Assembly: GCA_019912885.1 (NCBI GenBank)
Contig: JAIOHV010000229.1
Location: forward strand, 3,846-67,845
From: a bacterium
GTDB taxonomy: Bacteria > Lernaellota > Lernaellaia > JACKCT01
Length of the DNA stretch: 64,000 bases
Direction of reading: 5' to 3'
A model generated the notes under the pieces. It did no database searches. It had not been told where the DNA came from and was given only the letters and a program-made list of their open reading frames with translations. Made by a program: the position numbers and the translations under genes. Positions 1 to 16,692 of the stretch are shown here, one piece after another (the stretch's first letter is position 1; each line of letters starts with the position of its first letter).

Positions 1-623
1 GGTGTGTGTTCGTGGATGCGCTCCGCGCCGTGGCGCATCTCCTTCATGGTCTGAATCGCGACGACCGTGTCGTACTTCGCCGCGAGATCGACGACGAAAT
101 CCAGATGCTCGACGTTGTATTTGGTCACCGTGCACGCGAGCGCGAAGGGGATCTTTTCGCGATACGCCGCCTCAAGGCCGGCCATCGTTTTTTCAAACCG
201 GTCCACGCCGCCTTCGACGCGGGCGTGGATCTCGCGCGGGCCGTGCACGCTCACCTTCAGCAAATCGATCCGGTGCAGGTCGTCGATGCGCTTTTCGATG
301 AACGTCCCGGTGGTGTTCATGCTGACCTGAAGACCGAGCGCTTTCGCCTTTCGAACAATCGTCCCGATGTCGTCGCGGATGAGCGGTTCGCCGCCCGACA
401 GCGAAAGGTGGATGCCGCCGATTTCCACGACCTGCTCCAGGCGCGGAAGGATGAAATCAAGCGGCACGAGCCCGGCGGGAAGTGTGTGCAGATGGCAAAA
501 GACGCACTCGGCGTCGCATGCGTTGAGAAGCTGCCAGCGCACCGCGATCGGCCGTTTGCGTTTCAGGAATTTCACCTGGGCAAAACGCGAGGCGGCTTGG
601 GCTTTTTGGCGCATTCTCAACAT
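1..623 (-). CDS. Radical SAM / SPASM-type enzyme, partial (3' end beyond window start)
   Basis: Minus-strand translation from ATG (cat at 621-623) reads MLRMRQKAQAASRFAQVKFLKRKRPIAVRWQLLNACDAECVFCHLH...SLSGGEPLIRDD..., with the CxxxCxxC 4Fe-4S motif about 30 aa from the N-terminus and a GGEP SAM motif. The ORF runs off the window start, so it is absent from the ORF track (no in-window stop). The plus-strand ORF 6..1112 is its antisense shadow. Paralogous in architecture to 12240..13280 and 10880..12001. Confidence 0.7.
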   Translation of the reverse strand, partial: MLRMRQKAQAASRFAQVKFLKRKRPIAVRWQLLNACDAECVFCHLHTLPAGLVPLDFILPRLEQVVEIGGIHLSLSGGEPLIRDDIGTIVRKAKALGLQVSMNTTGTFIEKRIDDLHRIDLLKVSVHGPREIHARVEGGVDRFEKTMAGLEAAYREKIPFALACTVTKYNVEHLDFVVDLAAKYDTVVAIQTMKEMRHGAERIHEHT

Positions 624-954
624 GATGGACTCGCGGGCTGGGCCAATCGGACAAATCAACCCCCGGGGGGCCGCGCGCCGAGACGGATCGTATTGGCGAC
701 CTCCCATTTTACGGAATATCGACCGGATAACAAACGACGTCAGGCGACTTGCGAATACCTGAGGAAACTCAACCGCAACGCGGAGACTTTCGCATGGCGC
801 GCTTCCGGCGTAACGCGGCTTACACATCGCGATTCTCGACCGCACAAACGGACTCGGGTAAAATGGTTTTTTGGTGCTCGAACCGAATTCGCGAGCCGAG
901 CCGATGGCGATGCGCGAAGGGCGTGCGCCGTGGGAGTCGAGGCATGGTGCGCCC

Positions 955-2376
955 ATGAAGATTTTGCTGGTCAATCCGCCGCGTTGGGACGCGCACCGCA
1001 TGGCGAAAAAGGTGCACGCGCCGCTGAATCTTCTGTACCTCGGCACGGCCCTGAAAAACGAAGGTCACGAGGTCGAGGTTCTGGACGCCAACGCGGCGGA
1101 CATGACGCTTGACCAAACCGTGGACGCGGCGGTCGCGGCCAAGGCGGGGCTGATCGGTTTTCCGCTGTTCTCGGACATTCTGCATCAAACGACGCGGCTC
1201 ATCCGCGCGACGCGCAAACGAATGCCCGCAACGCCGATCGTGCTCGGCGGCATCCACGTCACCGCCGATCCGCGCCACAACGCCGAAACGATTCCCGAGG
1301 CCGACTACTTCATCACCGGGTACGCCGAGCAGAGCCTCGCGCTGCTCGCCCGCGCGCTCGAGACGCACGCGCCACTCGACACGATCCCCTCGCTGACCTG
1401 GCGCGCGCCCGACGGCCTCCGGACCAATCCCGACAGCACGACGCGGATCGATATCAACGCGATCCCCATCCCCGACCGCTCGCTTGTCCGCGCGTACACG
1501 GAAAAAAACGCTTATTATCAGGTGCTGAACGCCAAACCGTTCGACACGATCGTCACGGGGCGCGGTTGCCCGTTCGTGTGCGGCTTTTGCTACAACGCCA
1601 TTCGCCCGCGCACGATGACCCGTTCGCCCGATAGCGTCATGGAGGAGCTCGTCTATCTCCATCAACGCGGCGTGCGTTTCGTGGATGTCGACGACGACCA
1701 CTTCACCTTTGATCGGCCCCGGGCGATGGAAATTTTCCGGCGCCTTACGCGCGAGAAGATGGATCTGTCGCTTTTCATCAAGGCGCGGCCGAACAACGTC
1801 GACGAGGAACTCATCCTCGCCGCGCGCGGCGCCGGCGTGTCGATCATCAGCTACGGCGTCGAATCCGGTTCGCAACGGCTGCTGGACGCCATGCACAAGG
1901 AAACCAACGTCGAGGACAACGCGCGGGTGATCGCGATGTCTCAGGCGGCAGGTCTGCAGGTGCACACGGGGTACCTCATCGGCTATCCGGGTGAGACGCC
2001 GGAAACGATCGAGGAGACCATCCGATTCGCGCGGCGAACGAAGCCCGACGCCGTTTCGCTTCAGATCCTCAAGCCCTATCTCGGCACCGAGGTTTACGAG
2101 CAGGCCAAGGCCAACGGCACCCTCGTCGGATCCTGGGATCCCAACGTGCCCGACTGGCCGTGGGTGCGCCTGCCGTGGACCGAGTCGCGCGACGATCTCG
2201 TCCGGTACGGCAAGAAATTCTACCGGAAGTCGTATTTGCGCGGCCGCAACGCCGTGCGTTATCCGGCGCGGATGATCAAGAACGCCAACATGCGCATGTT
2301 CCAGTACGCCGTGCAGACACTCGACGACATCCTGCGCCCGACACCCAAGGTCATTCCCGGCCGCGCCGCCGACTGA
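955..2376 (+). CDS. B12-binding (class B) radical SAM enzyme
   Basis: The N-terminal Rossmann-like B12-binding domain reads MKILLVNPP...LGTALKNEGHEVEVLD...IVLGGIHVT. It is followed by a radical-SAM core with GRGCPFVCGFC (CxxxCxxC). ATG at 955 is preceded by GGAG. The track ORF 871..2376 gives an alternative upstream start. Confidence 0.8.
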   Translation: MKILLVNPPRWDAHRMAKKVHAPLNLLYLGTALKNEGHEVEVLDANAADMTLDQTVDAAVAAKAGLIGFPLFSDILHQTTRLIRATRKRMPATPIVLGGIHVTADPRHNAETIPEADYFITGYAEQSLALLARALETHAPLDTIPSLTWRAPDGLRTNPDSTTRIDINAIPIPDRSLVRAYTEKNAYYQVLNAKPFDTIVTGRGCPFVCGFCYNAIRPRTMTRSPDSVMEELVYLHQRGVRFVDVDDDHFTFDRPRAMEIFRRLTREKMDLSLFIKARPNNVDEELILAARGAGVSIISYGVESGSQRLLDAMHKETNVEDNARVIAMSQAAGLQVHTGYLIGYPGETPETIEETIRFARRTKPDAVSLQILKPYLGTEVYEQAKANGTLVGSWDPNVPDWPWVRLPWTESRDDLVRYGKKFYRKSYLRGRNAVRYPARMIKNANMRMFQYAVQTLDDILRPTPKVIPGRAAD

Positions 2377-2380
2377 TCCG

Positions 2381-3406
2381 TCACGATGCGTTCGCGCCGA
2401 TCCGATCCGCGTTCGCCGCGTCGGCCACCGGCGCGAACAATCCCATTCGAAGAGCGCCCGGCAAGAAAAGCATCGAAAGGAACACGGGCAGAAGCCGCAT
2501 CGAAAACGATACGATGAGCCCGCCGGCGAGCGCCGCGGCTTCGCTTCCGAACGACGCGAAAAACGCCACCGTCGCGGCCTCGCGCGTTCCCAGGCCCAGG
2601 AACGTGATGGGCAGTTTCGCGGATAACATCACGAGCGGCGCGCGCCAAAGCAGGTCACCAAGCGGCACGGATATCCCCGCGGCGCCCAGACACATGCCGA
2701 TCGCCAACAGATCGACTAATTGAAGCACGCAGCCGGCCGCGATCAGCGTGAGCCGATGCGATAGCCCGATGTCGGTGAATCCGGCGACGAGGTTAGCGAA
2801 CAGATCGCCCACGCGCTCGTTTCTCGCGCGCACCCACGCGACCGGGTGACGCATCCACGGAAGGACAAACGGGACCGACGCAATGCCTGCGCTCAAAAAC
2901 GCCGGTATCCAATACCCGGCCGCGCCGGTGATCCACAATCCGAGCGCGAGATACACCCAAATCGTGTAAAAATTGATGAAATGATACATCGCCATCGAAC
3001 CCGCGCCGCGCGCGAACGGCAGGCCGTAATGCCTAAGCAGGTAATGGGGTCCGACGACAAACGAGCCGGCTTTCATCGGCAAAATCACGCGCAAGCACAA
3101 CACGCCGAGCCATAAACGGTAGATCTCGGCAATCGGTGGGCGCGCGCCGAGCCACACCACGATGCGTTGCCAGAAAAACGGGGTGCCGCCGAAGATGACA
3201 AGAAGATGCAACACGATCGCGGCGGCGATATAGGCGGGACGCGCGTTGGAGAGTGCGTCAATCAACGCCTCCCAGCCGCCCAGGTGAATGAGCACCGCGA
3301 AGATGAGCGCCATCAGAATCAGCGACACGAAAAGGCTCGCCGCCTTTCGCTTCCGAACGCCGCGCCCGAATTCCACCAGGAATTTCGTTCGATCCGCCGC
3401 CGGCAT
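2381..3406 (-). CDS. UPF0104 / lysyl-PG-synthase-TM-like 'flippase-like' polytopic membrane protein (copy A)
   Basis: Translation is highly hydrophobic and multi-TM with the ...TFLGLGTREAA... motif typical of the MprF flippase-domain family (PF03706-like). ATG (cat 3404-3406) is preceded by GGGAGG. About 78% nucleotide identical to 13336..14361. Confidence 0.7.
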   Translation of the reverse strand: MPAADRTKFLVEFGRGVRKRKAASLFVSLILMALIFAVLIHLGGWEALIDALSNARPAYIAAAIVLHLLVIFGGTPFFWQRIVVWLGARPPIAEIYRLWLGVLCLRVILPMKAGSFVVGPHYLLRHYGLPFARGAGSMAMYHFINFYTIWVYLALGLWITGAAGYWIPAFLSAGIASVPFVLPWMRHPVAWVRARNERVGDLFANLVAGFTDIGLSHRLTLIAAGCVLQLVDLLAIGMCLGAAGISVPLGDLLWRAPLVMLSAKLPITFLGLGTREAATVAFFASFGSEAAALAGGLIVSFSMRLLPVFLSMLFLPGALRMGLFAPVADAANADRIGANAS

Positions 3407-3525
3407 GTTCCTCCCGCGCGTGACTATCGCGCCCGTCCCCAGTCCAGGCAAGCGCCTCGTTGATACCGTCCCGGGTTGATCCCTCGCCGGCCGCAGCGTG
3501 GACGCGCACGTCTCGTCAGGGGAGA

Positions 3526-3720
3526 ATGGTCGGGGGAGTCGAATACGCCGTGCCAACCGTTCCGCGCGACCGCATCATCATGATCCCGACATACAACGAG
3601 TCGGCGACTATTCGCCCGCTCGTCGACCGGATCATCGAAGCCGATCCTCGTTCGGACATCCTGGTCATCGACGATGCGTCGCCGGACCACACCGCCGACA
3701 TCGTGCGGGCGTTTGGGCAC
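3526..3720 (+). pseudogene. N-terminal remnant of a GT2 (dolichyl/polyprenyl-phosphate sugar synthase, Dpm1-like) glycosyltransferase
   Basis: Translation MVGGVEYAVPTVPRDRIIMIPTYNESATIRPLVDRIIEADPRSDILVIDDASPDHTADIVRAF is a canonical GT-A N-terminus (PTYNE ... DDxSxD). Sense is lost after about 65 aa. The reading frame then runs into the 3' end of the convergent gene 3887..5548, and no continuation appears in other frames. Confidence 0.5.
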
Positions 3721-3886
3721 ATTCCATCCCTACCTGGCCGTCGAGGCGCTCGCAAAACTGCACAAACTGCGCGCGGGTTAATCCCGCGAGCGAAGCGAAC
3801 GCTCCGTCGCGGCCTCGTGCCAAGCGTTTGCCGGACGACGACACGCCAGGCGCAAGCACCGGACTTCCCCGGACGCGCGGAAGGGA

Positions 3887-5548
3887 TCAAATCGTCCCGC
3901 GCGCTTCTTCGAGCAGCTCGTCCACCTGGATCTCGAAAAATCCGTAGGTCGTCGTCGTAAACACGCGGCCGCTCTTCGGAAGCACGAGGATCGCATAGTT
4001 GCGCGGGCCGACGTTGACCGTCGCAAGCACGCGCTTGTCTTTCCACGAGACGACGTGGAACTCGCCGTTGAAATAGTTGCCGATGTAGAGCAGATCGCGC
4101 CGCGCGTCCGCGGCGACCAGATGCAGGCCGATGCCGATTTTCATCGAGCCGGTCACCGTCAGTGTCGCCGGATCGATCCCGTATAGCCGCCCGGTCAGCG
4201 GATTGACAAGAAACAGGTCGCCCGTGGCAGGCTCGGTCTCGAGCCCAAAACCAAACGGCCACATGAGCGTCCGGCGGATTTCGAGCGTGTCGTTGTCAAG
4301 TTCCGCGACGCCGGGCGGGATCCAGTCAACCTGCGTGTAGAAGTGCCCCGTCTTCGGCGACTTCACCACCACGTCGGCGCTGGGATTCGGGACGCCCATC
4401 AAGATGCGTCGCGGCTGGATCTGCCAGATCGTCAACTCATGCGGAAGAGGGCGCCAGGCCAATTCGTCCGAAGGCGTTTCGTAAAAGACGATCATCCGGT
4501 TTCTTTCGTGCTCGATAACGATCTTTTGAACGTCGCGGTGCGCCGGGTACTCGCGATAAAGTTGCCCGGCGTCGTCCGGGCAGACGCAATTGCGATCGCG
4601 GGATTGCGAGATGACCTCGCATGCGAATTCGACCGGATGCTCGAACGCCTTGGCAGGAATGCGCAAAAGGGTTCGGAAGCCGACGTTGCCCACCCAGAGC
4701 GTTTCCGACGCCGTGTCGTAGGTGATCGCCTCGGTCCGAGTCGGCAGCGGCAACGCGTCGAATCGGCCGGTCGTCAATTCGTAGCGGAAAAGACTGCTGT
4801 ACGGGTGCGGCCGTGAAGCGGGAAACGCGGACATGACGTCCGCAGCGTAGATGTAACGCTCTTCCGGATCGGCCGTCAGGTAGTACAGAAAGTGCGGCGG
4901 ATTTTCGATTGGGTATTCGCCGACGGGAAAATGCGGACACGACCCGGCGGGATCCGGTCCATGCGCGCGCGCCGGTCTGCCATAGGCATACGTCGCAAGG
5001 GGAACCACGCCCCGTTGATCGAGCGTTTTCTCATACGCGCTCTCATCCAGAGGCCGCTCGAAATCGACCCACCGGTAGGCATACGTGGCTATCGCAAGAA
5101 AGAAAATGAACGGATAGATCGCCGGAATGTTTCGACGCCGGGCGAGCAACGCCGACACGGCGACCGCCACGGCCACAAGCCATGGCACAATCGGCTGAAC
5201 GAGCGATTGAAAGACGATGAGAACGGAAAATATCGGAAACGCGATCGCGACGAGCAGCGTCCACGCCGCGATGCGCGTGTAGCGGGCCGCGCGATACCAG
5301 GCGCGCCGATCGGCATTTCGTTCCACGCGTCCCGCCGCGACCACGGCGCAAAACAATAGCGGCGGAATAAAGAGGATGCCCCATGAAATGGCTTGCTGCG
5401 GGATCCTTTGGCTGATGGCGAAAAAGTCGGGCGTGACGATTTTTGTGAGATGGTGGGCGTAGGCATAAAACGATAGTGCGAGAAATAACGCGAACGCCGC
5501 GCCGCGTCGCATCTTCGCCGCCACCGCCCTGGCCCGATGACTTGTCAT
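3887..5548 (-). CDS. Membrane-anchored protein with C-terminal beta-propeller-like domain (hypothetical)
   Basis: The N-terminal 200 aa is multi-TM. The C-terminal region carries repeated strand-like motifs (...LYIGNYFNGEFHVVSWKDKRVLATVNVGPRNYAILVL...) reminiscent of YVTN/NHL propellers. The start overlaps the upstream DegT stop (ATGA), implying operon coupling. Confidence 0.6.
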   Translation of the reverse strand: MTSHRARAVAAKMRRGAAFALFLALSFYAYAHHLTKIVTPDFFAISQRIPQQAISWGILFIPPLLFCAVVAAGRVERNADRRAWYRAARYTRIAAWTLLVAIAFPIFSVLIVFQSLVQPIVPWLVAVAVAVSALLARRRNIPAIYPFIFFLAIATYAYRWVDFERPLDESAYEKTLDQRGVVPLATYAYGRPARAHGPDPAGSCPHFPVGEYPIENPPHFLYYLTADPEERYIYAADVMSAFPASRPHPYSSLFRYELTTGRFDALPLPTRTEAITYDTASETLWVGNVGFRTLLRIPAKAFEHPVEFACEVISQSRDRNCVCPDDAGQLYREYPAHRDVQKIVIEHERNRMIVFYETPSDELAWRPLPHELTIWQIQPRRILMGVPNPSADVVVKSPKTGHFYTQVDWIPPGVAELDNDTLEIRRTLMWPFGFGLETEPATGDLFLVNPLTGRLYGIDPATLTVTGSMKIGIGLHLVAADARRDLLYIGNYFNGEFHVVSWKDKRVLATVNVGPRNYAILVLPKSGRVFTTTTYGFFEIQVDELLEEARGTI

Positions 5549-6747
5549 CGGCCGCGCACCGGGAAAATTTCTTGCATCGCGGCGGTGAGGCGATCAAACC
5601 TGCGATCGTTCAATCCGCCATAGAGCGGCAGCAATACCGCGCGCGCGTGGACGTTAGCGGCCACCGGGCAATCGGACGCGCCCAGCGCGGCGGCACCGTC
5701 ATCCGCCACCTCGCCGCCGATGCCGATATCCAGTCCCCGGCGCATCGCCAGACGGCGCAAGTCGGCGGGCGGTATCTCGGACAACGCAACGAAATTGTAG
5801 AAAGCCGGCTCACCGGCAAGATCGCGCCGCTGCGCGACAAGGCCCGCCGGAAGCCCCGCCGCGAGGGCGTCGAATCGGGCGTTCAAGGCGGCGTTTCGCG
5901 GATCGAGATCGCGTAAGCGCGCGATTCCCAGCCGCGCCTGAAAAACGCTGAAGGCGACTTTGCGACGAATCCGGTCGTGGCTGCCGCGATAGGCGCGTTC
6001 GAATCGCGCCGCCATCAAGGGCGAAAAAAGAACGCGCGCCGCGAGTCCATAGATCGGGCTGCGAATCACGCCCTCCTCGATCCACGCCAGCAAAGCCTTT
6101 TTCAATGCCGGCCATTCCGTTACCGGGCGCTCGTCGATCTCCCGCGCGATGTCCGCGCCCCTTCCCGCATCCTTCACGACCACGATGCCGCCGCCGTAGG
6201 TGGGCAGCGCCTTGTTCACCTCCAGGCTGAAAAACGAGGCCGCGCCGAACGTGCCGACCTTGCGCCCATTCACCGTGGCGCCAAGGGCGTGCGCGCAGTC
6301 CTCGACGACCGAAAGCCCTCGCTCGTCGGCGAGCGCGCAAAGCGCTTCGATATCGCACGGCGCACCGAACAAGTGCGTCGCGAGGACGGCGCGCGTCGCG
6401 GGCGTGATGCGCGCCCTGACGCTTTCGACATCGATATTGAATCCCACCGGTTCGATATCCGCCGCGACCGGGCGCAACCCGTGCGCCTGCATGAGCGGCA
6501 GCAATTCGCCAAGCGTGTAAGCGGGCACGATGACCTCGTCGCCCGGCCGAAGACCGACGGCCTTGAAGGCGAGCATCATCGCATCGCGGCCGCTTGCGAC
6601 GGCCCGGGCGAATTCGCATCCGAGGTATTCGCGAAACCCCGCCTCGAACGCGCGCACGTCGTCACGCCCGCGCGCGTCTCCCGCGAGCGATCGGCACCAG
6701 AACGAGACGTCACGAAATCGAAAGGACAGGCGTCGCCGCGGAATCAT
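5545..6747 (-). CDS. DegT/DnrJ/EryC1/StrS-family PLP-dependent sugar aminotransferase (copy A)
   Basis: Translation MIPRRRLSF...GDEVIVPAYTLGELLP...HLFGAPCDIEALCALADERGLSVVEDCAHALGA...FFSLEVNKALP has the fold-type-I aspartate aminotransferase-like signature of this family. It is about 50% identical to the paralog at 14448..15683. The track ORF extends to 6810. Confidence 0.8.
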   Translation of the reverse strand: MIPRRRLSFRFRDVSFWCRSLAGDARGRDDVRAFEAGFREYLGCEFARAVASGRDAMMLAFKAVGLRPGDEVIVPAYTLGELLPLMQAHGLRPVAADIEPVGFNIDVESVRARITPATRAVLATHLFGAPCDIEALCALADERGLSVVEDCAHALGATVNGRKVGTFGAASFFSLEVNKALPTYGGGIVVVKDAGRGADIAREIDERPVTEWPALKKALLAWIEEGVIRSPIYGLAARVLFSPLMAARFERAYRGSHDRIRRKVAFSVFQARLGIARLRDLDPRNAALNARFDALAAGLPAGLVAQRRDLAGEPAFYNFVALSEIPPADLRRLAMRRGLDIGIGGEVADDGAAALGASDCPVAANVHARAVLLPLYGGLNDRRFDRLTAAMQEIFPVRGR

Positions 6748-6754
6748 CGCGCGC

Positions 6755-9133
6755 TCAATCCTGTCGCCGCGCCCGCCGCCCGCCGAACGCGAGAAGCGCG
6801 ACGATGCCAAGACCCATGGCGCTCACGGCGAGGCCGCGACGAAACGATCGCGGTACATACGCGACGCGTATTTCGTTATCACCCGGACCGACGGGGATGG
6901 CGCGAAACGCCCCCTGCGCGCGGCAAATCGGCGCGGACTGTCCGTTGACCGTCGCCTCCCAGCGCGAATCCCAAACGTCGGTCAACAGAACGAATCCCGG
7001 CGACGGCGCGTCAACGCGCATGTCAACGCTTGTTGAAACGTGGTTCGTGATGTTCACAATGAATTGCGCACCCGAGCCTGTCATTGTCTCCGGCGGCGCC
7101 TGGACGGGTTCGGGGCAAACCAACACAAGGGATCGGCGCGGATCGAAGGACTTGGCATCCAATTGCCCCGCCGCCGCCTGGTCGTCCGGCTCAATCCGCG
7201 CGCCGGAGAAAAACGTCGCGCGCGGCAGCGCGTTATCGTTTCGATACAGATAAACGCCGTCACGCCGCACGAACGTGTAACCCGGCGCATCGATCGGCGT
7301 GCGCGACAAAATGTATTTGATATTCAACATATCGACCCAAGGGCTCCGCAAGCTGTCGCGGGACCGCAATTCACGCACGCGGATGTTCCATATCTGGTTG
7401 ACGTACGAGCCCTTCTCGATGCGATCCCACACCGCCGCGTAGGAATCGATGATCACAGACAAGTAACCCGCGGCGTCGGCCAAATTGTATCCCATCCCCG
7501 TGTCGGGGGGGAAGATGTTCGAGTAGCGTCCCGGCGGATCGGGGTCGAATCGCGCGAAGCGGAAAACGCTCGTATCCGCGCGCATGGCGTCCGTGATCGG
7601 CGTCGGCGGAAAGATGTCGCCCGGCGGATTGTCCGGAACAACGGGCAAACCCGAACGAAGGATGTTGGCGGCGACAAAGATCAGGATGACGAACGGGAGG
7701 ACGCGGGAGTCCGGATGTCGCGCGCGGGCCATCAGCAGGACAAGCGCGACCGCCGTCGCGACCGCGCCAAAGGCCAGCGGCCGGTCGATCTCAATGCCCT
7801 GACCGGGCATCGGACGAACGGCGTCGATGTAGATCGCGACGGCTGCGATCAAACCGGCCGCGATGAGAACCCTGCCCATCGCCTTTTTGCGCTGCCGGGG
7901 CGTCGGGGCACCGATCTCGTCGAACCCCGCCGCGCCCAGGATGACGATCGCCGCCAACGGGATGAGAAGAAGGCCGCGCGACAGCGCGACGGACTTTAGA
8001 AGCGGCGTGTGCAAATACGGCCAAGCCAAGGGTGTGCCCAACGCGACGAGGAGCATGACAAGCCCGAACAACGCGATCGCCAGATGGCGCGGGCGACGCC
8101 GCGCGGCAAGACCCGCGGCGGCCAGGAGAACGATCGTCGAGCCGGTGTAGGCTAACGTCTGATGCGACCAGAAATCCGGATACGTAGACATGCTCAACGG
8201 TTTTACGGCGCCGAAACCCGGAAAAATCGCGCCGGCAACATCGACCCAGGGAATGTGGTCGCGAATCAACAAGGCCGCCGGCTCTTCGTAGTCCGTTCGG
8301 CTGAGAAAACCCATGGTCGGCAGGATTTGCGCCGCGCCGATGGCGGCGGCGAGCGAGGCCGCGACCCCGGCCCAGCCGATCGCCCTCGCCCGCGCGATGC
8401 CCGCGCGTTTTTCGAGAAGATCGATCAGAAAAAACACGCCCCAGGTCAAAAAAACGATCACGCCGGTTTTGAGATTGCCCGCCAGCATGATCGCCGAAAA
8501 TCCAAGCGTGAGCGCCGCGGCACGGCGCGCGTCGGGGCGTTCGACAAGCCGGCGCCCCAACAATAGCGTGACGGGCAGCCACGCGATGGTGTGATGCATG
8601 GGTGGGTCGAAAATGGTCTCCAGCATGAATCCGCCGTAGGCGAAAACAACGGCCCCTAGAATCGATGCCGTGACCGATCGGCCAAACGCGCGCAGCAACA
8701 AAAAAAAGCCGAACCCGGCGATGAACGCGTGTGCAAACGCGAGAATCGCCAGTGTCTGATCCATCGGCAGGATCAGATAAAGGGCGTTCGGCGGATAGAG
8801 AAGTCCTTGTTCATTGATTCCGTGAAGAGGCGTTCCCCCGAGCACGAGTGGATTCCAGTGCGGAAAACGCCCATGCCGCACCTCCTGGATCGCGTAGCTT
8901 TGCCAGGAGAGATAAAAGTCGAGAACGTCGGTCAGGTCAGGACTTTGAAGGCTGTTGACGTCGTCGATCGATTCCCCCGCCCAGGGATACGCGACGCCAA
9001 GGTTGTCGGTCGGGACCAGGGAGGTCACGCGCAACGCGCCCAAACCAAAGAGCACGGCGCCAACAATGAAAATCGCCGCCGCGCCCACGAGCCGCGCCCG
9101 TGCGGCGGCCGCGCGCGGCAGCGGCATGTTCAT
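6755..9133 (-). CDS. YfhO-like large polytopic membrane protein (putative GT-C glycosyltransferase)
   Basis: It is 792 aa with more than 12 predicted TM helices, followed by a C-terminal extracytoplasmic domain. The overall architecture and the N-terminal loop match the YfhO family, which includes glycolipid/teichoic-acid glycosylating GT-C enzymes. Confidence 0.65.
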   Translation of the reverse strand: MNMPLPRAAAARARLVGAAAIFIVGAVLFGLGALRVTSLVPTDNLGVAYPWAGESIDDVNSLQSPDLTDVLDFYLSWQSYAIQEVRHGRFPHWNPLVLGGTPLHGINEQGLLYPPNALYLILPMDQTLAILAFAHAFIAGFGFFLLLRAFGRSVTASILGAVVFAYGGFMLETIFDPPMHHTIAWLPVTLLLGRRLVERPDARRAAALTLGFSAIMLAGNLKTGVIVFLTWGVFFLIDLLEKRAGIARARAIGWAGVAASLAAAIGAAQILPTMGFLSRTDYEEPAALLIRDHIPWVDVAGAIFPGFGAVKPLSMSTYPDFWSHQTLAYTGSTIVLLAAAGLAARRRPRHLAIALFGLVMLLVALGTPLAWPYLHTPLLKSVALSRGLLLIPLAAIVILGAAGFDEIGAPTPRQRKKAMGRVLIAAGLIAAVAIYIDAVRPMPGQGIEIDRPLAFGAVATAVALVLLMARARHPDSRVLPFVILIFVAANILRSGLPVVPDNPPGDIFPPTPITDAMRADTSVFRFARFDPDPPGRYSNIFPPDTGMGYNLADAAGYLSVIIDSYAAVWDRIEKGSYVNQIWNIRVRELRSRDSLRSPWVDMLNIKYILSRTPIDAPGYTFVRRDGVYLYRNDNALPRATFFSGARIEPDDQAAAGQLDAKSFDPRRSLVLVCPEPVQAPPETMTGSGAQFIVNITNHVSTSVDMRVDAPSPGFVLLTDVWDSRWEATVNGQSAPICRAQGAFRAIPVGPGDNEIRVAYVPRSFRRGLAVSAMGLGIVALLAFGGRRARRQD

Positions 9134-9317
9134 TGCGATGCCGCCGGCGTCGCCGTTAACCGGCGCGCGCGCCGCCGCGGGTGAGGCAACGGGAGTGTCG
9201 GCGGTTCAGGAAATTTGCGTATCGCGACGGCGGTCAGGACGACCGCGCCGGCTACAGGAACGATTGCGGCGGCCGGAGATCCCGCGGGCAAGACTGCCCG
9301 GCGGGGCGAACGCGAAT

Positions 9318-10808
9318 TCATGACGACAGTTGGGGGGGGACACGCATTTCGCGCAACGGGACGCCCGCATCGGTATCGTCTGGGCGAATCGAAGCCGCGG
9401 ACACGGCGTACGAAAGCGCGTGCCCGGCGATCTCAATCGCCCGGGACGGATTGCGCTTCATCCACGCCAACCACTGGCCGCCGTGTGCGCGCAGATATCG
9501 GCTCGACAGGTAGTAGCGCCGATAAAAGCGGCGCCGCAGCCGGGCGATCGTCACGTCGGACATCGCGCTCAGATTGCCGCGCGGCCGATCGACGTGGCGC
9601 ATGTCGGTATCACCGGGGCGGTCGGCCGCGAGCGCGGTGTCCGGATACGGCGTGCAAAACGACATCTGCGCGACCAGGGGATTGAGCGCGCACGCGAGCG
9701 CCTCGGTCTTTTGGAAATCTTCGCGTGTCTCGCCGGGCGCGCCGATCATGAATGTGTAGCGGTTTCGGAAGCCGAACCGGTCGAGCATCGCGGCGCGTTG
9801 CCGGATATCGGCGACCGTCGTCTTTTTATTCAGCCGTTCGAGGATCGCGTCGCTGCCGGACTCGACGCCGCACGTCATCCCCACGCACCCCGCCGCCTTC
9901 ATCGCGGCGGCAAGTTCCTCGTCCAGGTGGTCAAGCCGCGTCTGAACGATCCACGGCACGCCCAGGCGCCTTTTCCCAAGCTGGCGGCACACTTCCAGCG
10001 CCCACCGGCGATGACCGGTGAAGATCTCGTCCTCGATCGAAATCACGTTGCGGCGAGCCTCCCGAACCTGATATTCCATTTCGGCGACGAGGCGCTCGGG
10101 TTCGCACGCGCGGAAAGCCAGGTGAGCACTCTGCCGCGCCATCGACGAGCAGAACGCGCAGTCATAAAAACAGCCGCGCGTCGCGAGGATGAATCCCCAG
10201 CGGGCCCTTTCACCGATCGCAAGCGGAAACGAATATTTGTGGAAGCGGTCCGTCGCCAGAAGACGCGCGGGGACAAACGGCAGATCGTCCGTGCGGGCTA
10301 GCGGCGCCGCCCCGGTCGACCGCATTCGATGGCCGTCGCGAAGGATCAACCCTACCGGCGGCGCGCCGGCGCGGCGGGCGCTCCACCACGAAACAAGCGA
10401 TCCTGCCGTCGGCTCCGGATCGCCGCCGATGACGGCATCGGCGCCCGCATCGAGCACGTCGCCCGGATGCGCCTCGGCATACGAGCCGAACGCGGCAACC
10501 ATCGACCCCACATCGCGCGCGGCGTCGATGACGCGGCGCATCGCCGGCATGCGGCCAAACGGGATCTCCACGAACACGGCGTCCGGCCGATCCGCGAGGT
10601 CCGGAGTCGCGCCGGGCGCGATCACGGCAAGCTGGGCGCCAAACCCGAGCCGCCCGAGCATGGCGCCCGAGAGCGCGGCGGAAAACGGCAGCACACGATC
10701 GCGCGGATGCGGCCCGTTTTCCTCCGCGGTGCGGATGAACAGCGCACGAGGCGCGCCGGGCCGACCGTCGGAGATGGGGAGACGATTTGTGTTATCCGCG
10801 CGCGCCAA
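9318..10808 (-). CDS. B12-binding (class B) radical SAM enzyme (second copy)
   Basis: The N-terminal B12-binding-like region (...LAVIAPGATPD...VIGGDPEPT...) is followed by ATRGCFYDCAFCS (CxxxCxxC) and a rSAM core (GVESGSDAILERLNKK). The true start may be internal to the listed ORF. Confidence 0.75.
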   Translation of the reverse strand: MARADNTNRLPISDGRPGAPRALFIRTAEENGPHPRDRVLPFSAALSGAMLGRLGFGAQLAVIAPGATPDLADRPDAVFVEIPFGRMPAMRRVIDAARDVGSMVAAFGSYAEAHPGDVLDAGADAVIGGDPEPTAGSLVSWWSARRAGAPPVGLILRDGHRMRSTGAAPLARTDDLPFVPARLLATDRFHKYSFPLAIGERARWGFILATRGCFYDCAFCSSMARQSAHLAFRACEPERLVAEMEYQVREARRNVISIEDEIFTGHRRWALEVCRQLGKRRLGVPWIVQTRLDHLDEELAAAMKAAGCVGMTCGVESGSDAILERLNKKTTVADIRQRAAMLDRFGFRNRYTFMIGAPGETREDFQKTEALACALNPLVAQMSFCTPYPDTALAADRPGDTDMRHVDRPRGNLSAMSDVTIARLRRRFYRRYYLSSRYLRAHGGQWLAWMKRNPSRAIEIAGHALSYAVSAASIRPDDTDAGVPLREMRVPPQLSS

Positions 10809-10879
10809 CCGTTCCCATCTCCTGTGATGATGTACCGCTCATGATACGCGACCCGCGCCGCGCGGCAAAGGGCCGCAAT

Positions 10880-12001
10880 TTACGCCCCGCGCAGCAGATG
10901 CGCCCTCGCCTGACGGTACGTTTCGATCGGATGCGCGGCGAGATACGGCAGATGAAAACGGATCGCCGGTTCGGTGATACCGATATCCCAGCACGGCTGC
11001 GTGCAGCCGCGCACGATCTCGCATTGCGCGCGATAGTCCGCGCCGGCCACAATCTCCTCGAGCGGCGCCTGTCGAATATTGCCGGCGGGCCGTTCGTTGT
11101 AACAAGCCTTCACATCACCGTTCGGTTCGACGATGACAAACAGAAAGCCCGCCACGCACGGCACGGCGCGTCCGGGCCTGTACGCGTCGTCGATGCGGCG
11201 CACGAAAAGCGGCGAGTTCGCGTGTATGCCCCGCGCGTTCAGATCGTCGACGATCCGCGCCAGCGTCGCCTTGGCTGTCTCCCATTCGTCGTCGGTGGGC
11301 AACAGATTGTCGAACGCCGCGCGGTCCATGTGCCGTTGCTGCAACGCGGTGTGTACGGGCGTGAACTGGATTTTCTGCACCCCGAGCCCGACGAGAAACG
11401 CGGCGAGCTCGTCGAGCACCGCGATGTTGTCGCGCATCACGGTCACGTTGACGCCGACCGGCACCGGCGCGGGCCGCGAGCGAAACGCGCGGATCGCGCG
11501 AACGACTTTGGGTAGGCCGTCCACGCCACGAATCGCCTTGTAGCCTTCGGGTTTGTGGTGATCGCACGAGACGTACACCATCGAAAGACCCGCGTCGGCG
11601 AGCGACGCCGCGCGCGCGTCGTCAATGTTCATTCCGTGCGTGTTCAGGTGGATGGAAAGGCCCGCGCCGGAAAAGGCCGCGATGATCGTTTCGAGGTCGT
11701 GCCGAAGCGTCGGCTCGCCGCCGCCGATCGAGACGACGCGCGTCCCGAGCGCGGCAAGCGACGGAATCATCGACAACACCTCGCCTGTCGACAAATCGTC
11801 CGGCCCGCCGTTGGCCAACCGCCAGAATTCGCAGCTTCGGCATGCGGAGTTGCAGCGGTGCGTGATGTCGAAATACACGATCGGAAGGCGCGTCGGCGCG
11901 CCGCGTCCGTATCGCGCGCGAAGCACGCCGGCAAACGGCGCCGCGAGCGACGCCGCGAAACGCAGTTCTTTAATAAAGCGATTCGACGCACGGTTTGTCA
12001 T
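10880..12001 (-). CDS. Radical SAM enzyme with C-terminal SPASM domain
   Basis: The rSAM motif is ITHRCNSACRSCEFW and the SAM motif is IGGGEP. The C-terminal Cys cluster is CVAGF...GDVKAC...CEIVRGCTQPCW (SPASM/twitch pattern). Confidence 0.8.
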   Translation of the reverse strand: MTNRASNRFIKELRFAASLAAPFAGVLRARYGRGAPTRLPIVYFDITHRCNSACRSCEFWRLANGGPDDLSTGEVLSMIPSLAALGTRVVSIGGGEPTLRHDLETIIAAFSGAGLSIHLNTHGMNIDDARAASLADAGLSMVYVSCDHHKPEGYKAIRGVDGLPKVVRAIRAFRSRPAPVPVGVNVTVMRDNIAVLDELAAFLVGLGVQKIQFTPVHTALQQRHMDRAAFDNLLPTDDEWETAKATLARIVDDLNARGIHANSPLFVRRIDDAYRPGRAVPCVAGFLFVIVEPNGDVKACYNERPAGNIRQAPLEEIVAGADYRAQCEIVRGCTQPCWDIGITEPAIRFHLPYLAAHPIETYRQARAHLLRGA

Positions 12002-12239
12002 CCGGTGAATTGTCGCATACGGGGCGCCCGCGCGCGACCGACGCCATGCGCCGCGGAATTTTTCCGCGCGGACCCGCCGGCGCGATGGGAGTCTCGCGAA
12101 TACCGGCGTTCCCTCGACCCCAACCCCGGCATCGGGTAAAGTCGAGCGTCAGGTCCGATGGGATATGGCGCGCCGGGCAAAGGTTCGAAGAACGCATGAA
12201 TGACGAGCGGAAATTTCGCGCGCGAGGGGAGATCGCTTC

Positions 12240-13280
12240 ATGAGGGCGATTCATTTCGTGCGTGCGTTTCGGGCGGCTCTCCGATTGCGTATTCGGGGAG
12301 AAAAGACGCCTCTCGCGGCGAGTTGGCCGCTGTCGCATCGGTGCAACCTTCGATGCTCGTACTGCCAGATTTGGGACAAACTCGGTTACGAACTCGATCT
12401 GGAACAAGGCAAGAAACTCATCGACGACCTGGCCGCGGCCGGAACCATCTGGCTCTCATTTTCCGGCGGCGAACCCATGTTGCGCAAGGAGGTGGGCGCC
12501 TTCATCGACTACGCCACCGAGCGCGGCATGGAGACGAGTATCAGCACCAACGGCCGCCAGATCGATTCGCGCTGGCACGAGATCCGCCGCGTCGGCCGTG
12601 TCAAGATCAGCCTCGACGGACCCGAAGACGTCCACGACGGCGTTCGCGGCGCGGGCTCCCACGCGGTGGCGATGCGCGCGGCCGAAACCTGTCTCGAGCA
12701 CGGCATCCCGATCAAGTTTTCCGCGGTGCTCGGCAATCACAATCTCGAGGCGATCGACTACCTGATTGACGTGTCGCGCCAATTCCAAACGCAGGTGATG
12801 TTTCAGCCGACGACGCTCGCCAAGCTGCGCGACTTCGAGCCCAATCCCGTCTGCCCCGATATCGAGGGATACCGGCGAGTTGTCGACGATCTGATCGCGC
12901 GAAAGAAGAAGGGCTGCCGTCAGATCGCGAACACGCTCGATGGGCTGCGTCACATCCGCAAGTGGCCGGAATCGACCGCCGTGGAATGCTGGGCCGGCCT
13001 TTTGTCGCTGGCCCTGGAGCCTGACGGCACGATCACCTCCTGCACGCGCGGCCCGCTTGAGAAAAGGCAGCGCATCGCGCGGGACGGATCGTTTCCGAAG
13101 GCGTTCGCGCAGCTACACGTTCCGGACTGCCAGCAATGCTGGGACAGCGGCATGCTGGACCTGAACCACGCGTTGTCGTTTAGGGCGCGCACCGCCTTGG
13201 CGCTGGTGGCGAGATTCTATCGGCGGCCGCGCCGGCAAATCGAACGCGTGCATCTGGTAAAATCGACCGCCCCCCGCTGA
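12240..13280 (+). CDS. Radical SAM enzyme with C-terminal SPASM domain
   Basis: Motifs SHRCNLRCSYCQIW, FSGGEP and the C-terminal VECW...SCTRG...CQQCWDSG are present. It is divergent from the minus-strand operon and adjacent to UPF0104 copy B. Confidence 0.8.
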   Translation: MRAIHFVRAFRAALRLRIRGEKTPLAASWPLSHRCNLRCSYCQIWDKLGYELDLEQGKKLIDDLAAAGTIWLSFSGGEPMLRKEVGAFIDYATERGMETSISTNGRQIDSRWHEIRRVGRVKISLDGPEDVHDGVRGAGSHAVAMRAAETCLEHGIPIKFSAVLGNHNLEAIDYLIDVSRQFQTQVMFQPTTLAKLRDFEPNPVCPDIEGYRRVVDDLIARKKKGCRQIANTLDGLRHIRKWPESTAVECWAGLLSLALEPDGTITSCTRGPLEKRQRIARDGSFPKAFAQLHVPDCQQCWDSGMLDLNHALSFRARTALALVARFYRRPRRQIERVHLVKSTAPR

Positions 13281-13335
13281 CGTCGCGGATCGGCACGCAC
13301 GGCGCGAACCGCGACCCCGTTTTCGCGCAGGATCC

Positions 13336-14361
13336 TCACGAACCCTTCGCGCGGGTTCGATCCATTCCGGATGCGTCGTCCGCCGTCGTGAACAGCCCCA
13401 TGCGAAGGGCGGACGGCAGAAAAAACAACGATACGAATACGGGAAGCAGGCTCATCGAAAATGACATGATGAGCCCGCCCGCGAGGGCCGTGACCTCGCT
13501 GCCGAACGGCGCGAAAAAAGCCACCATCGCCGCCTCGCGCGTCCCCAGCCCCATGAAAGTGATCGGCAGATTCGCCACCAGGAACACGAGCGGCGCACGC
13601 CAGAGCAACTCGGCGATCGGTACACCCACGCCCGCGGCGTCAAGGCACATGCCGATCGCAAACAGATCGACCAACTGAAGCGCACAGCCGGCCAAGACCA
13701 ACCAAAGGCGATTCGAAAGGCCGAGGTCGGTGAACCCGCCGACGAGATTGGCGAACAGGTCGCCGGCGCGCCCGTTTTTCGCGCGCACCCACGCCACCGG
13801 GTGGCGCATCCACGGCAGCGCGAACGGCACGGCGAGAACAACCGCGAGGCCGGCCGCCGGCAGCACCCGGCCCGCCGTGCCGGTAAGGAGAAGCCCAAGC
13901 GCGAGATACACCCAGATCGTGTAGAAGTTGATGAAGTGGTACAGCGCCATCGAACCCGCGCCGCGCGCGAAAGGCAGGCCGTAGTGCACGCGAAGATAAT
14001 TCGGCCCGATGACAAACGACCCCGCCTTCATGGGCAGGATCGCGCGCAGGCATAGCACGCCAAGCCACAGGCGGTAGATCTCGACGAGCGGCGGGCGCGC
14101 GCCAAGCCACACGACGATTCGATGCCAGAAAAGCGGAGCCCCAACGAAGATGACCACGAAGTGCAGCGCGATCGCCGCGGCGATGGAGGCGGAATTCGCC
14201 TCGGAAAGTGTCCGGCGCAGGTCGTCCCAGCCGCCAACGCGAACGAGCGCCGCGAAGATGAGCGCCATGAGCACGATCGCCGCCGCCGCGCGCCAGAGCC
14301 GTCGCCGGCGAAAGCCGTGTCCGATCGCGGACAAGACGGTCTTTCGTTCGACAGGCTTCAT
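13336..14361 (-). CDS. UPF0104 / LPG-synthase-TM-like flippase-like membrane protein (copy B)
   Basis: It is about 75-80% identical at protein and nucleotide level to 2381..3406, with the same GLGTREAA motif. ATG is at 14359-14361. Confidence 0.75.
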   Translation of the reverse strand: MKPVERKTVLSAIGHGFRRRRLWRAAAAIVLMALIFAALVRVGGWDDLRRTLSEANSASIAAAIALHFVVIFVGAPLFWHRIVVWLGARPPLVEIYRLWLGVLCLRAILPMKAGSFVIGPNYLRVHYGLPFARGAGSMALYHFINFYTIWVYLALGLLLTGTAGRVLPAAGLAVVLAVPFALPWMRHPVAWVRAKNGRAGDLFANLVGGFTDLGLSNRLWLVLAGCALQLVDLFAIGMCLDAAGVGVPIAELLWRAPLVFLVANLPITFMGLGTREAAMVAFFAPFGSEVTALAGGLIMSFSMSLLPVFVSLFFLPSALRMGLFTTADDASGMDRTRAKGS

Positions 14362-14447
14362 GCGTCTTCATCCATGGGGATTATTCCGCCGCCATTACGA
14401 CCTGTGCGGCTTGTGTAGGCAAGAGCCGCCAAGTTACCTTGCGCGCC

Positions 14448-15683
14448 ATGATCCCCCGCCGCCGCACCACCACCTACCCGGGCATGACGCGACGGATCAT
14501 CTCCGCATATCTCAATGGCGAGGCCGTCGCCGGCGCGGCATCGGCCGAGTTCGAACGGCGCCTGGCCGCGATCGCGGGCACGCGCCACGGTATCGTCGTG
14601 TCGTCCGGCCGCTTCGGGCTGCAACTGATTCTGCGAAACATCGGCCTTGCGCCCGGCGCGGAGGTGATCGTGCCGGCGTACACGCTCACCGAGTTGCCGC
14701 ACGTCGTGCGGGATGCGGGATATACGCCGGTGCTGGCCGACATCGAAGCGCACAGCCTTAACGTCGGCCCGGAGCAGATCGCGAAAAAGATCACCGAACG
14801 CACGAGCGTGATCCTCCTGACGCACATGACCGGCGAGCCGGGCGACGTGGACGGCATTTTGCGCCTCGCGGCCGAGCGCGGACTCCTTGTGATCGAGGAC
14901 AACGCGCACGGCATCGGGGTGACGTTGCCCGACGGGCGACCGCTCGGCTCGCTCGGACGCGCGTCGTTTGTCTCGCTAGCCACGCGCAAGGTGGTCAACA
15001 CCTTCGCGGGCGGCGCCATTCTTACCAACGACGATGCCCTTGCCGCCAAAATTCGCGAGGCCGTCGCGTCCCTGCCGGTCACGCACAAAAAGCTTCTGAT
15101 CCGCGTCGTCACCTGTTCACTTGAAATATCGAGCCTCGGCCGTATTTTCGCGCCGATGACCGTCCGTCTTTTGCATTCTCCCCGGTTCAACAAGATGATG
15201 GTCGGGCTCTACCGTGCGATGCACCGCCGCGGGCGGGAGACGGAGTTCGGATACGCCAACCTGCAGGCGCTTCTCGGGCTGGACCAGTTCGATGTCCTTT
15301 CCGCGACCATTGCGCGGCGGCGAGCCGTCGCGAAGACCATCATTGACGGTCTAATGGAATCGCCGGACTTCGACCGCGAATACCTCGCCGCGCTGCGCGT
15401 ACGCGCGTTCGGATCCGGCGCGATCACGCACAACTTTTTTGAGCTGATCGTCATGGCGCACAATCCGTCCGCGCTGGCCGGGAAGTTGCTCAGGCACGGC
15501 GTGGATGTCGGTACGGGCGACGATGTTTGCGAGGATCTACCGCGCTTGTACGGCGCCGGCGGCGACTTCCCCAATCTGCGCCACGCCCTTGCCCACGCCG
15601 TGCAGCTACCGATCTGGTCGACGATGACCGAGCGCGAGGCGCGCGTCGTGGTGGCGCGGATTCTCGCGGCGGCGCACGACTGA
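14448..15683 (+). CDS. DegT/DnrJ/EryC1/StrS-family PLP-dependent aminotransferase (copy B)
   Basis: Translation MIPRRRTTTYPG...GAEVIVPAYTLTELPHV...LLTHMTGEPGDVDGILRLAAERGLLVIEDNAHGIG is a clear family match. An alternative start lies at 14439. Confidence 0.8.
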   Translation: MIPRRRTTTYPGMTRRIISAYLNGEAVAGAASAEFERRLAAIAGTRHGIVVSSGRFGLQLILRNIGLAPGAEVIVPAYTLTELPHVVRDAGYTPVLADIEAHSLNVGPEQIAKKITERTSVILLTHMTGEPGDVDGILRLAAERGLLVIEDNAHGIGVTLPDGRPLGSLGRASFVSLATRKVVNTFAGGAILTNDDALAAKIREAVASLPVTHKKLLIRVVTCSLEISSLGRIFAPMTVRLLHSPRFNKMMVGLYRAMHRRGRETEFGYANLQALLGLDQFDVLSATIARRRAVAKTIIDGLMESPDFDREYLAALRVRAFGSGAITHNFFELIVMAHNPSALAGKLLRHGVDVGTGDDVCEDLPRLYGAGGDFPNLRHALAHAVQLPIWSTMTEREARVVVARILAAAHD

Positions 15684-15849
15684 GGTCGCCGGGCTGTTTC
15701 CACGCGGCGTTTCGTGTCGCCTTGCGTCAATGCCGATGTGCGCCGACCGCTCGACGCACCGTTTTCGCGCGAGCCGTTTTTTTTGCATTACGACCCCACC
15801 TGACGCATGCCCGCCGGAACATCCGCTTGCATTGGACAAAGGAGACCTT

Positions 15850-16692
15850 ATGCAGGCGTTTCGATTTTACGAAGTCTCGGTGACGGGGATCGCGGGGGAT
15901 ATCCGGGGGCAATTCGCCGAGGCCAGCGGCTCGCTGCAACCTGTCGCGCACGCCGGCGACGCGCCGCTTATCGACGAATGGATCGTCAACGACGACGTCA
16001 GCGGCGCGGCGATTCGCCTGGCGATTCGCGGCGAGGCCGGCGCGCGCCGCCTCGCGCCGATCGGTATCGATCCCGCGCATCGGCTGACGCGGCTCTATGG
16101 TGCGCTCGCGTATTTTCGCGCGGGGATGATCGCGCGCGGCCTGGAGAAGGTGCACTCGTTTCGCTACGCCGACAATCTCGACATGGAGATCGCGGCCGGT
16201 GTCCTGTCCGCGGATGAGCGCATGAACGCCTTCGCCGAGGCGTTTCTCGGGCCGTGGTCGCCGATCGACGTCGCCTTTCTTTCGCCGCTGCGCGCGATCG
16301 CGGGCATCGACGCGCACGCCGACCCGGACGACATCCGCCGCGTGCTTCGCGACTGGTACGCGCGCGCCGAGGCGTGGTCCACGCGCGTCGCGGGTTTTTC
16401 GTATCACGGCGGCGCGTTCATCCGCGAGGAGTGCGGCGTGGAGAAAACCATCCTCGCCAAAGGCGACGAATGCCGCCTGTTCCGCGAGCCGTACAACCCC
16501 GTCGACCCGAACGCGATCGGCATCATGCACGTGTCCGGCCGCAAACTCGGCTACGTGCGCAAGACCATCGCCGCGCTCGTCGCGCCGCTCATGGATCTCG
16601 GCGTGGTGTATCGCGCGAAAGTGGGCGCGTTCCTGTCGAACGAGTTCGATCCGCCGGAGCGCGTTTACGTGTCGGTGGAGCGCGTGGGGTGA
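15850..16692 (+). CDS. Hypothetical protein with C-terminal HIRAN domain
   Basis: The AAGGAG RBS sits 6 nt before ATG 15850. The C-terminal ...VAGFSYHGG...GDECRLFREPYNPVDPNAIGIMHVSGRKLGYVRKTIAALVAPLMDLG matches the HIRAN consensus (NPxDxNAI ... GyV). The N-terminal about 190 aa is unassigned. Confidence 0.65.
   Translation: MQAFRFYEVSVTGIAGDIRGQFAEASGSLQPVAHAGDAPLIDEWIVNDDVSGAAIRLAIRGEAGARRLAPIGIDPAHRLTRLYGALAYFRAGMIARGLEKVHSFRYADNLDMEIAAGVLSADERMNAFAEAFLGPWSPIDVAFLSPLRAIAGIDAHADPDDIRRVLRDWYARAEAWSTRVAGFSYHGGAFIREECGVEKTILAKGDECRLFREPYNPVDPNAIGIMHVSGRKLGYVRKTIAALVAPLMDLGVVYRAKVGAFLSNEFDPPERVYVSVERVG

Follow-up and report, generated by a model that had tools for sequence, protein, structure and literature searches.

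Among membrane proteins of the MprF/YbhN type (PF03706, UPF0104, COG0392, also called PplT), translocation of a lipid has been demonstrated experimentally only for MprF (10.1101/2022.03.11.483950). UPF0104 proteins were also predicted to act as glycosylation flippases, from their association with AglD-like family 2 glycosyltransferases (GT2) and PMT/STT3-like genes (PMC5898192); for the archaeal proteins that role is a prediction and not an experimental result. GT2-flippase-YfhO systems glycosylate teichoic acids at the outer face of the membrane (PMC5836110, PMC7389260, PMC8035078), and HpnL, another protein of the UPF0104 family, is itself without an assigned function (10.1101/2025.07.29.667474). 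The present analysis concerns two PF03706 genes, copies A and B, that lie 10 kb apart within a sugar-tailoring gene cluster of a bacterium of the Lernaellota (assembly GCA_019912885.1; 64,000 nucleotides of contig JAIOHV010000229.1, from position 3,846 to 67,845, hereafter the window). In most prokaryotes the PplT gene is reported to be single, whereas here two share one cluster, and their context is sugar and radical SAM tailoring rather than phospholipid synthesis. A and B are probably an old, lineage-specific pair of paralogues, in which only the flippase-like gene stands duplicated today, and not part of a recent duplication of a whole gene module. As a duplication this is no more than an ordinary pair of paralogues. 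It is also a compact bacterial case in which comparison with the gene order of a single-copy relative suggests that an entire cluster was duplicated and then thinned by reciprocal loss until one gene alone was kept twice.

Copy A (2381..3406, minus strand; NCBI MBZ0274386.1) encodes a stand-alone, MprF-flippase-like (PF03706/UPF0104/PplT) membrane protein of 341 amino acids, and copy B (13336..14361, minus strand; NCBI MBZ0274394.1) its 341-residue paralogue. Both are complete open reading frames (ORFs) of 341 codons with an ATG start, which in copy A is preceded at about 5 nt by a GGAGG motif, and both carry the NCBI label "flippase-like domain-containing protein". A preliminary description of this DNA, made by inspection of the sequence, had reported that the two stretches align collinearly at about 78% identity. 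The alignment is indeed collinear, running over 1026 columns with 0 gaps, and the similarity is real and high, but the figure was slightly too large: nucleotide identity is 755/1026 (73.6%) ungapped and 76.1% over 960 nt by BLASTN (E = 0, far beyond chance). Of the aligned amino acid columns, 235/342 (68.7%, stop column included) are identical, with 68.6% over 341 residues by BLASTP, and identity at codon positions 1, 2 and 3 is 76, 84 and 61%. The long exact runs quoted in the same description can be found as 67-mers at 2950 and 13905, though they differ at 6 of the 67 positions; the longest exact run is 27 nt, unexceptional at such identity (codon-shuffle P = 0.09). An Rfam scan of window positions 1-20000 gave 0 matches, and promoter and terminator scans around A and B gave chance-level results only.

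Close relatives of the pair are scarce. Among 5.8 billion clustered proteins, the subfamily sharing more than 60% identity consists of A, B and one further protein, X (P0003), from a Deltaproteobacteria metagenome-assembled genome (MAG; GCA_027493875.1), whose locus is here called L001. A full HMMER scan of 1.84 billion representatives placed the next relatives, P0004 and P0005, at 42-43% identity. P0004 is a second, differently placed PF03706 paralogue in the MAG of X, 43% identical to A; it lies on another contig (L004, 10001-10996) directly after a gene of the PAP2_3 phosphatase family, a lipid-phosphate-like context. Profile searches for further subfamily relatives returned only the L001 locus again from genome contigs and nothing from metagenome contigs.

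The placement of the duplication relative to X was assessed in three ways. In a neighbour-joining tree with nine outgroups, A and B were sisters in 279 of 300 bootstraps. Shared derived residues numbered 13 for A with B, 1 for A with X and 5 for B with X when P0004 served as outgroup, and 12, 0 and 3 with P0005. Identity at four-fold degenerate sites was 0.61 between A and B, compared with 0.46-0.54 for five pairs of window and L001 orthologues. Because these three results agree, the duplication is placed after the split from the X lineage, and on the sequences at hand it is specific to the lineage of the window; the view in the preliminary description that the two UPF0104 genes are true paralogues born of a duplication is upheld. 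The four-fold-site identities of A/B and of the window/L001 orthologues further allow a rough estimate that the A/B split would be about two-thirds as old as the split from this nearest known relative.

At the protein level, A and B (69% identical) are no more alike than A and X or B and X (67-70%), so that the amino acid distance within the pair is as large as that from A to X despite the younger age of the pair. Accelerated evolution of the proteins since the duplication would be one explanation, as far as the saturated synonymous divergence of the orthologues allows a comparison. The same equality of protein identities could be read to mean that A and B are older, having duplicated before the split from L001, which then lost one copy, and having been partly homogenised by gene conversion since. 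Such a history is very improbable, as a sister relation of A and B is favoured both by synonymous sites and by the derived residues that they share, and no conversion tract was found in the pair: third-position identity is even along the gene (0.43-0.73), and run tests gave P = 0.09 for the longest exact run and P = 0.53 for identical-codon runs, which are no longer than chance. With third-position identity even and identical-codon runs at chance, there is no sign of recent gene conversion, and conversion was rejected as the source of the A/B similarity. X, for its part, has no chimeric pattern; an origin as a recombinant of A and B was ruled out, there being no switch of affinity between its N-terminal and C-terminal parts.

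The preliminary description had further called the duplication recent. The nonsynonymous divergence (dN) of A and B is 0.20-0.24, the synonymous divergence (dS) by four methods ranges from 0.75 (NG86) to 1.6 (YN00), and identity at the 147 four-fold sites, 61%, compares with 37% predicted from composition; an age of this order does not fit that word. The dN/dS ratio, proposed there as a check and now computed for the pair, is 0.13-0.29, and both copies have been under purifying selection since the duplication.

It had also been proposed that the duplication copied a module of radical SAM enzyme, flippase and aminotransferase, yielding two parallel tailoring branches, on the grounds that a radical SAM gene lies beside each copy and a DegT gene near it. 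That neighbourhood was correctly seen. Copy A adjoins a B12-binding radical SAM gene (g2, 955..2376, plus strand) and is two genes away from a DegT gene (g5, 5545..6747, minus strand), and copy B adjoins both a radical SAM gene (g9, 12240..13280, plus strand) and a DegT gene (g11, 14439..15683, plus strand); the SPASM domain assigned to the adjacent enzymes is found by Pfam only in the radical SAM protein encoded at 10880-12001, which is adjacent to neither copy. The proposal that these genes were copied together is, however, barely credible, and in its strict form it is refuted by BLASTP, by self-BLASTN and by the L001 orthologues. Within the A/B region, self-BLASTN of the 64-kb window found similarity only between 2375-3316 and 13331-14271. 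The 150-nt flanks of A and B are not significantly similar (z = 1.95 upstream, 0.30 downstream), as against z = 8.9 for the opening and 15.5 for the closing 150 nt of the genes themselves; collinear nucleotide similarity thus stops at the gene borders.

The neighbouring proteins are likewise not as diverged as A and B, but far more so. In an all-versus-all BLASTP comparison of the cluster proteins, the two DegT proteins g5 and g11 are 32% identical (69% for A and B), and each is 25-31% identical to the DegT proteins of distant loci, much like their mutual value. There is no BLASTP match between g2, beside A, and g9, beside B; the matches among the cluster's radical SAM proteins are g2 with g7 (29%) and g9 with g1 and with g8 (27-28%). 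The radical SAM genes adjoining A and B have no detectable kinship beyond family level. In addition, g2, g9 and g11 (three of the four neighbours; not the DegT gene g5) each have their own 63-82% identical orthologue at the single-copy X locus. Because of this, none of the three was created by the A/B duplication, and the paralogies of g2/g9 and of g11 predate it. Nor do two DegT genes require two flippases, since another related locus, L012, has two DegT genes and just one flippase-like gene. Judged by such comparisons, the radical SAM and DegT genes beside A and B are anciently diverged members of their families, not co-duplicates, and the dS of about 1 also speaks against a recent module. 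The original event may still have been segmental, but the evidence for that is synteny and a GT2 relic, and not the radical SAM and DegT "pairs".

In L001 the gene order is GT2(-), DegT(-), X(+), g2'(-), g9'(-), g8'(+), g7'(+), g1'(+), g6'(+). Read on the opposite strand, the window has g11 DegT(-), B(+), g9(-), g8(+), g7(+), g6(+), g5(+), g4(+), the GT2 pseudogene(-), A(+), g2(-), g1(+). All nine genes common to the two loci keep their relative orientation. X lies between the orthologues of g11 and g2, so that B retains the left neighbour of X (DegT) and A its right neighbour (g2), and the shared genes of the window fall exactly into two series that each follow the order in L001, {DegT, X, g9, g8, g7, g6} and {GT2, X, g2, g1}, with only X in both. 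In L001 itself, DegT, g9', g8' and g1' (8616-9845, 12392-13348, 13642-14789 and 16493-17498) are split by frameshifts or uncalled; the frameshifts may be assembly error or real decay, and they limit inference on which genes work there.

The GT2 pseudogene (3550..3781, plus strand) is divergent from copy A and occupies part of the 480 bp that separate copy A from g4. It is an internally deleted remnant of a polyprenyl-phosphate-sugar-synthase-like gene: positions 3568-3720 match residues 8-58 of the 237-residue L001 GT2 at 78% and, after a shift of frame, positions 3722-3772 match residues 219-235 at 71%; some 158 codons are absent, and a stop follows at 3779-3781. The relic lies within 7,855 nt over which an independent Logan assembly shows 100% identity. 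A tblastn search of the 64-kb window revealed no intact orthologue of this GT2, and no GT2 domain was found among the window ORFs scanned with Pfam. That both ends are still 71-78% identical to the L001 orthologue suggests a fairly recent loss.

The order of genes would be explained by a tandem duplication, or by the gain of a closely related second copy, of a block GT2-DegT-X-g2-g9-g8-g7-g1-g6, after which reciprocal loss would have left DegT (g11)-B-g9-g8-g7-g6 in one block and GT2 (now the pseudogene)-A-g2-g1 in the other. This history fits the gene order of the two loci and is not proven; we give it about an even chance. Several points weigh against it and keep the estimate there. There is one close comparator genome only, the L001 MAG, whose gene order need not be ancestral and whose cluster genes carry many frameshifts; g4 and g5, between the two "copies", have no L001 counterpart; and in seven intergenic regions no relic of another duplicate was found besides that of GT2, all other matches having E > 0.005.

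The main alternative is that the flippase-like gene was duplicated alone, and that later, separate transpositions or insertions parted g2, g1 and GT2 from the rest of the cluster. It accords with the presence of just one gene in two copies today and with the lack of relics of other duplicates, and the g4-g5 block without L001 counterpart indicates that the region has gained or moved genes. Yet it would require at least three separate moves (GT2, g2 and g1), each ending next to the new copy with sequence and orientation of the genes preserved, while the order seen resolves exactly into two series that follow that of L001; of all permutations of eight genes, by our reckoning only about 0.6% show no more than one descent. 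Duplication of the single gene with order-preserving moves is thus the more doubtful of these two histories. With so few sequences, moreover, a copy acquired from an unsampled close relative is indistinguishable from one duplicated within the genome. One copy could accordingly be a xenologue, the gene or its cluster having arrived by horizontal transfer from such a relative and integrated beside the resident cluster. The extremely thin sampling (three subfamily sequences), a slight difference in GC content at third codon positions (77% vs 82%) and the HIRAN/WYL gene pair at the border of the cluster are in keeping with such a transfer. It is nonetheless quite improbable, A and B being each other's closest relatives, both of host-like composition, with no mobile-element genes seen in the cluster. 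Duplication of the larger block, or gain of a related one, with reciprocal loss therefore remains the preferred history.

As to the proteins themselves, A and B belong to PF03706/UPF0104/PplT by sequence profile, and copy A does so also by its modelled fold. The Pfam profile LPG_synthase_TM matches copy A with E=6.2e-17 and 62.4 bits (profile positions 3-292 of 302) and copy B with E=9.5e-15 and 55.3 bits, each against a cutoff of 33.4; the two matches together span positions 3-293 of 302, a full-length likeness to MprF and YbhN above cutoff. P110, G114, Y122, L123, P266, G271, G273, R275 and E276, invariant or nearly so across 70 family members, are present in A and B, and of these the family-invariant P110, G271, G273, R275 and E276 are retained in both. 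For copy A, AlphaFold2 with an alignment of 70 sequences gave a confident, all-helical model, with a predicted local distance difference test score of 93.5 and a predicted template-modelling (TM) score of 0.89. When it was compared with the PDB by Foldseek, ranks 1-6 were all MprF (probability 1.00, query TM-score 0.55-0.61, 315-341 columns), and the matches after these six entries had TM-scores of only about 0.2. The two polytopic, all-helical proteins of about 340 amino acids thus resemble MprF in form, the fold of copy A matching only MprF transmembrane domains in the PDB, and share with E. coli YbhN a stand-alone architecture (10.1101/2022.03.11.483950).

Points of difference are the lack of a lysyl-phosphatidylglycerol synthase domain, the lack of a cardiolipin-synthase neighbour and the very divergent sequence. 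A hidden Markov model of the A/B/X subfamily reached 0 chains among the PDB sequences at E<=0.1, for which reason the A/B subfamily is regarded as a distant member of PF03706. A scan against NCBIfam matched copy A only to TIGR00374, at 21 bits against a cutoff of 43, and copy B to nothing. Membership in HpnL (TIGR03476) and the hopanoid pathway was rejected, as neither copy has an NCBIfam HpnL match and no shc or hpnH was found among the scanned ORFs of the window. What recalls the cluster of HpnL with HpnI, HpnJ and HpnK is a UPF0104-family protein beside an HpnJ-like B12-binding radical SAM enzyme with a GT2 nearby; besides the missing HpnL, shc and hpnH matches, g2 reaches only 171 bits against the HpnJ cutoff of 578.

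The surrounding cluster, composed of five radical SAM enzymes, two DegT proteins, a YfhO-like protein, the propeller protein g4 and the two flippase-like proteins, is of more interest than the A/B pair; clusters like it recur elsewhere. Orthologues of g2 at 49-59% identity occur in loci L006-L012, and those of L007, L009 and L012 have a PF03706 gene no more than two genes away. A search with the flippase-like protein also led to L005, where the gene make-up is similar. Altogether, five independent loci show such closeness of a g2 orthologue to a PF03706 gene, in the company of DegT, GT2 and YfhO or PMT_2 genes. The related loci variously add GT2, DegT (two genes in L012), a YfhO or PMT_2 glycosyltransferase of the GT-C type and a split transketolase, the last occurring in L012 together with a methyltransferase, and each has one PF03706 gene or none. 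This is apparently an uncharacterised type of cluster, recurrent in several uncultured lineages (L001, L005, L006, L007, L008, L009, L012), that combines a g2-like B12-binding radical SAM enzyme and further radical SAM enzymes with a PF03706 gene, one or more DegT genes, a GT2 and a YfhO or PMT_2 GT-C.

Among known systems, the three-component transmembrane glycosylation systems (CsbB/GtrB/ArnC as GT2, GtcA/GtrA/ArnEF as flippase, YfhO/ArnT as GT-C) are close to the cluster in gene content. The window has a candidate GT-C in the YfhO-like polytopic protein g6, and YfhO or PMT_2 genes occur in related loci also; a short GT2 of the polyprenyl-phosphate-sugar-synthase type is intact in L001 and L012; a candidate flippase is present in A and B; and an amino sugar would come from a DegT aminotransferase comparable to ArnB (PMC5836110, PMC7389260, PMC8035078). 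The differences are that the candidate flippase is of PF03706 and not of the GtrA/GtcA or ArnE/F type, that the GT2 is a pseudogene in the window, and that the five radical SAM enzymes have no counterpart in the known systems. No GtrA/GtcA- or ArnE/F-family flippase was found among the Pfam domains of the cluster, the two PF03706 proteins being the sole candidates. The archaeal AglD C-terminal domain (arCOG00899) shows the same three-part association and likewise several paralogues per genome (PMC5898192); the cluster described here differs in being bacterial, in having a flippase-like protein separate from the GT2 and in its wealth of radical SAM genes.

By this comparison, the DegT and radical SAM enzymes would tailor a sugar that a GT2 then attaches to a lipid carrier, probably polyprenyl phosphate; A and B would flip the lipid-linked sugar from the inner, cytoplasmic leaflet to the outer one, and the YfhO-like GT-C would transfer it to an acceptor in the envelope. 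Translocation of a lipid-linked sugar in outer-face glycosylation of the GT2/flippase/YfhO type is proposed tentatively, at a little short of an even chance, because of the PF03706 match, the MprF fold, the GT2/DegT/YfhO neighbourhoods and the literature precedents. A number of observations count against such a role: no stand-alone PplT protein has a demonstrated substrate (10.1101/2022.03.11.483950), the flippase of the characterised three-component systems is of the GtrA/GtcA type and not PF03706, the GT2 of the cluster survives in this genome only as a pseudogene, though another GT2 may be encoded elsewhere in it, the YfhO match of g6 is limited to the C-terminal end of the profile, and the g2-orthologue cluster of L006 shows no PF03706 gene within 10 kb. 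The comparative evidence nevertheless has stand-alone PplT/UPF0104 proteins travelling with GT2 and GT-C glycosylation genes and with B12-binding radical SAM enzymes, company that points to lipid-linked sugars, rather than phospholipids, as the cargo of the A/B subfamily, and the cluster now named is a defined place where that idea is testable. Retention of two copies could reflect two substrates, a heterodimer or dosage; MprF is a dimer in several of the PDB entries found by the fold comparison. A more novel but unlikely combination would have a new amino sugar or cyclitol, heavily modified by radical SAM enzymes, built on a lipid carrier and attached to the envelope by clusters of the recurrent type, a cluster-wide duplication with reciprocal loss, and the flippase kept twice as two substrate-specific translocators or as an obligate heterodimer.

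The individual genes of the cluster can be summarised in window order. The first, g1 (3..640, start approximate, minus strand), runs off the start of the window and is represented by the N-terminal part only of a radical SAM protein (Pfam Radical_SAM, E=1.9e-16), with an 80-87% orthologue in L001. The HpnJ/BchE-like g2, convergent with copy A, has Pfam B12-binding and Radical_SAM domains, and its 82% orthologue adjoins the single copy X in L001. Beyond copy A and the GT2 pseudogene, g4 (3887..5548, minus strand) encodes a putative membrane-anchored, YVTN/YncE-like beta-propeller that has no Pfam family and no L001 orthologue; about four N-terminal transmembrane helices are predicted from hydropathy, and the C-terminal propeller gives a weak YncE match and a PDB match to the surface-layer YVTN propeller 1l0q (E=0.0018). 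Two small ORFs of L001 encode propeller fragments with weak similarity to g4 (26-28%), and L005 and L012 have unannotated proteins of like size (564 and 570 amino acids) at a comparable position, which may or may not be homologous to g4. The aminotransferase g5, of the pyridoxal-phosphate-dependent DegT/DnrJ/EryC1 family (Pfam E=4.1e-54), corresponds to a 400-residue gene call in L003.

The candidate GT-C glycosyltransferase g6 (6755..9133, minus strand) has about 12 hydrophobic segments and a Pfam YfhO match of 48.3 bits against a cutoff of 28.5, over the C-terminal part of the profile only; its L001 orthologue is 50% identical. It is followed by g7 (9318..10808, minus strand), a radical SAM protein of the B12-binding class with a 64% orthologue in L001 and with AprD4- and HpnJ-like similarity below cutoffs; g2 and g7 are both of this class, and their HpnJ-, BchE- and AprD4-like similarities are well under the family cutoffs. 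The radical SAM/SPASM protein g8 (10880..12001, minus strand; Pfam Radical_SAM and SPASM) has a 71-72% orthologue in L001, and the radical SAM protein g9, convergent with copy B (Pfam Radical_SAM and Fer4_12), a 75% orthologue. The DegT-family aminotransferase g11 (Pfam E=1.3e-55) is divergent from copy B, as its 63-72% orthologue in L001 is from the single copy X.

Bordering the cluster directly on its right, in the place that L001 synteny predicts for GT2, a gene for a HIRAN-domain protein (15730-16692, plus strand) is convergent with, and slightly overlaps, one for a WYL/WCX/HTH regulator (16665-17693, minus strand). Farther on, a gene for a cytochrome c protein, followed by one for a 1239-residue protein of the molybdopterin oxidoreductase family (20276-24842), resembles the start of an operon of the alternative-complex-III type, unrelated to A and B. 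The sole other self-similarity in the window, 74% at the nucleotide level between 42829-42991 (plus strand) and 55751-55913 (minus strand), falls in the genes of two proteins without Pfam domains, each with long Asp-rich linkers after a lipoprotein-type signal that ends in AAGCSCGDDD; this is a low-complexity similarity, unrelated to A and B and not a notable duplication.

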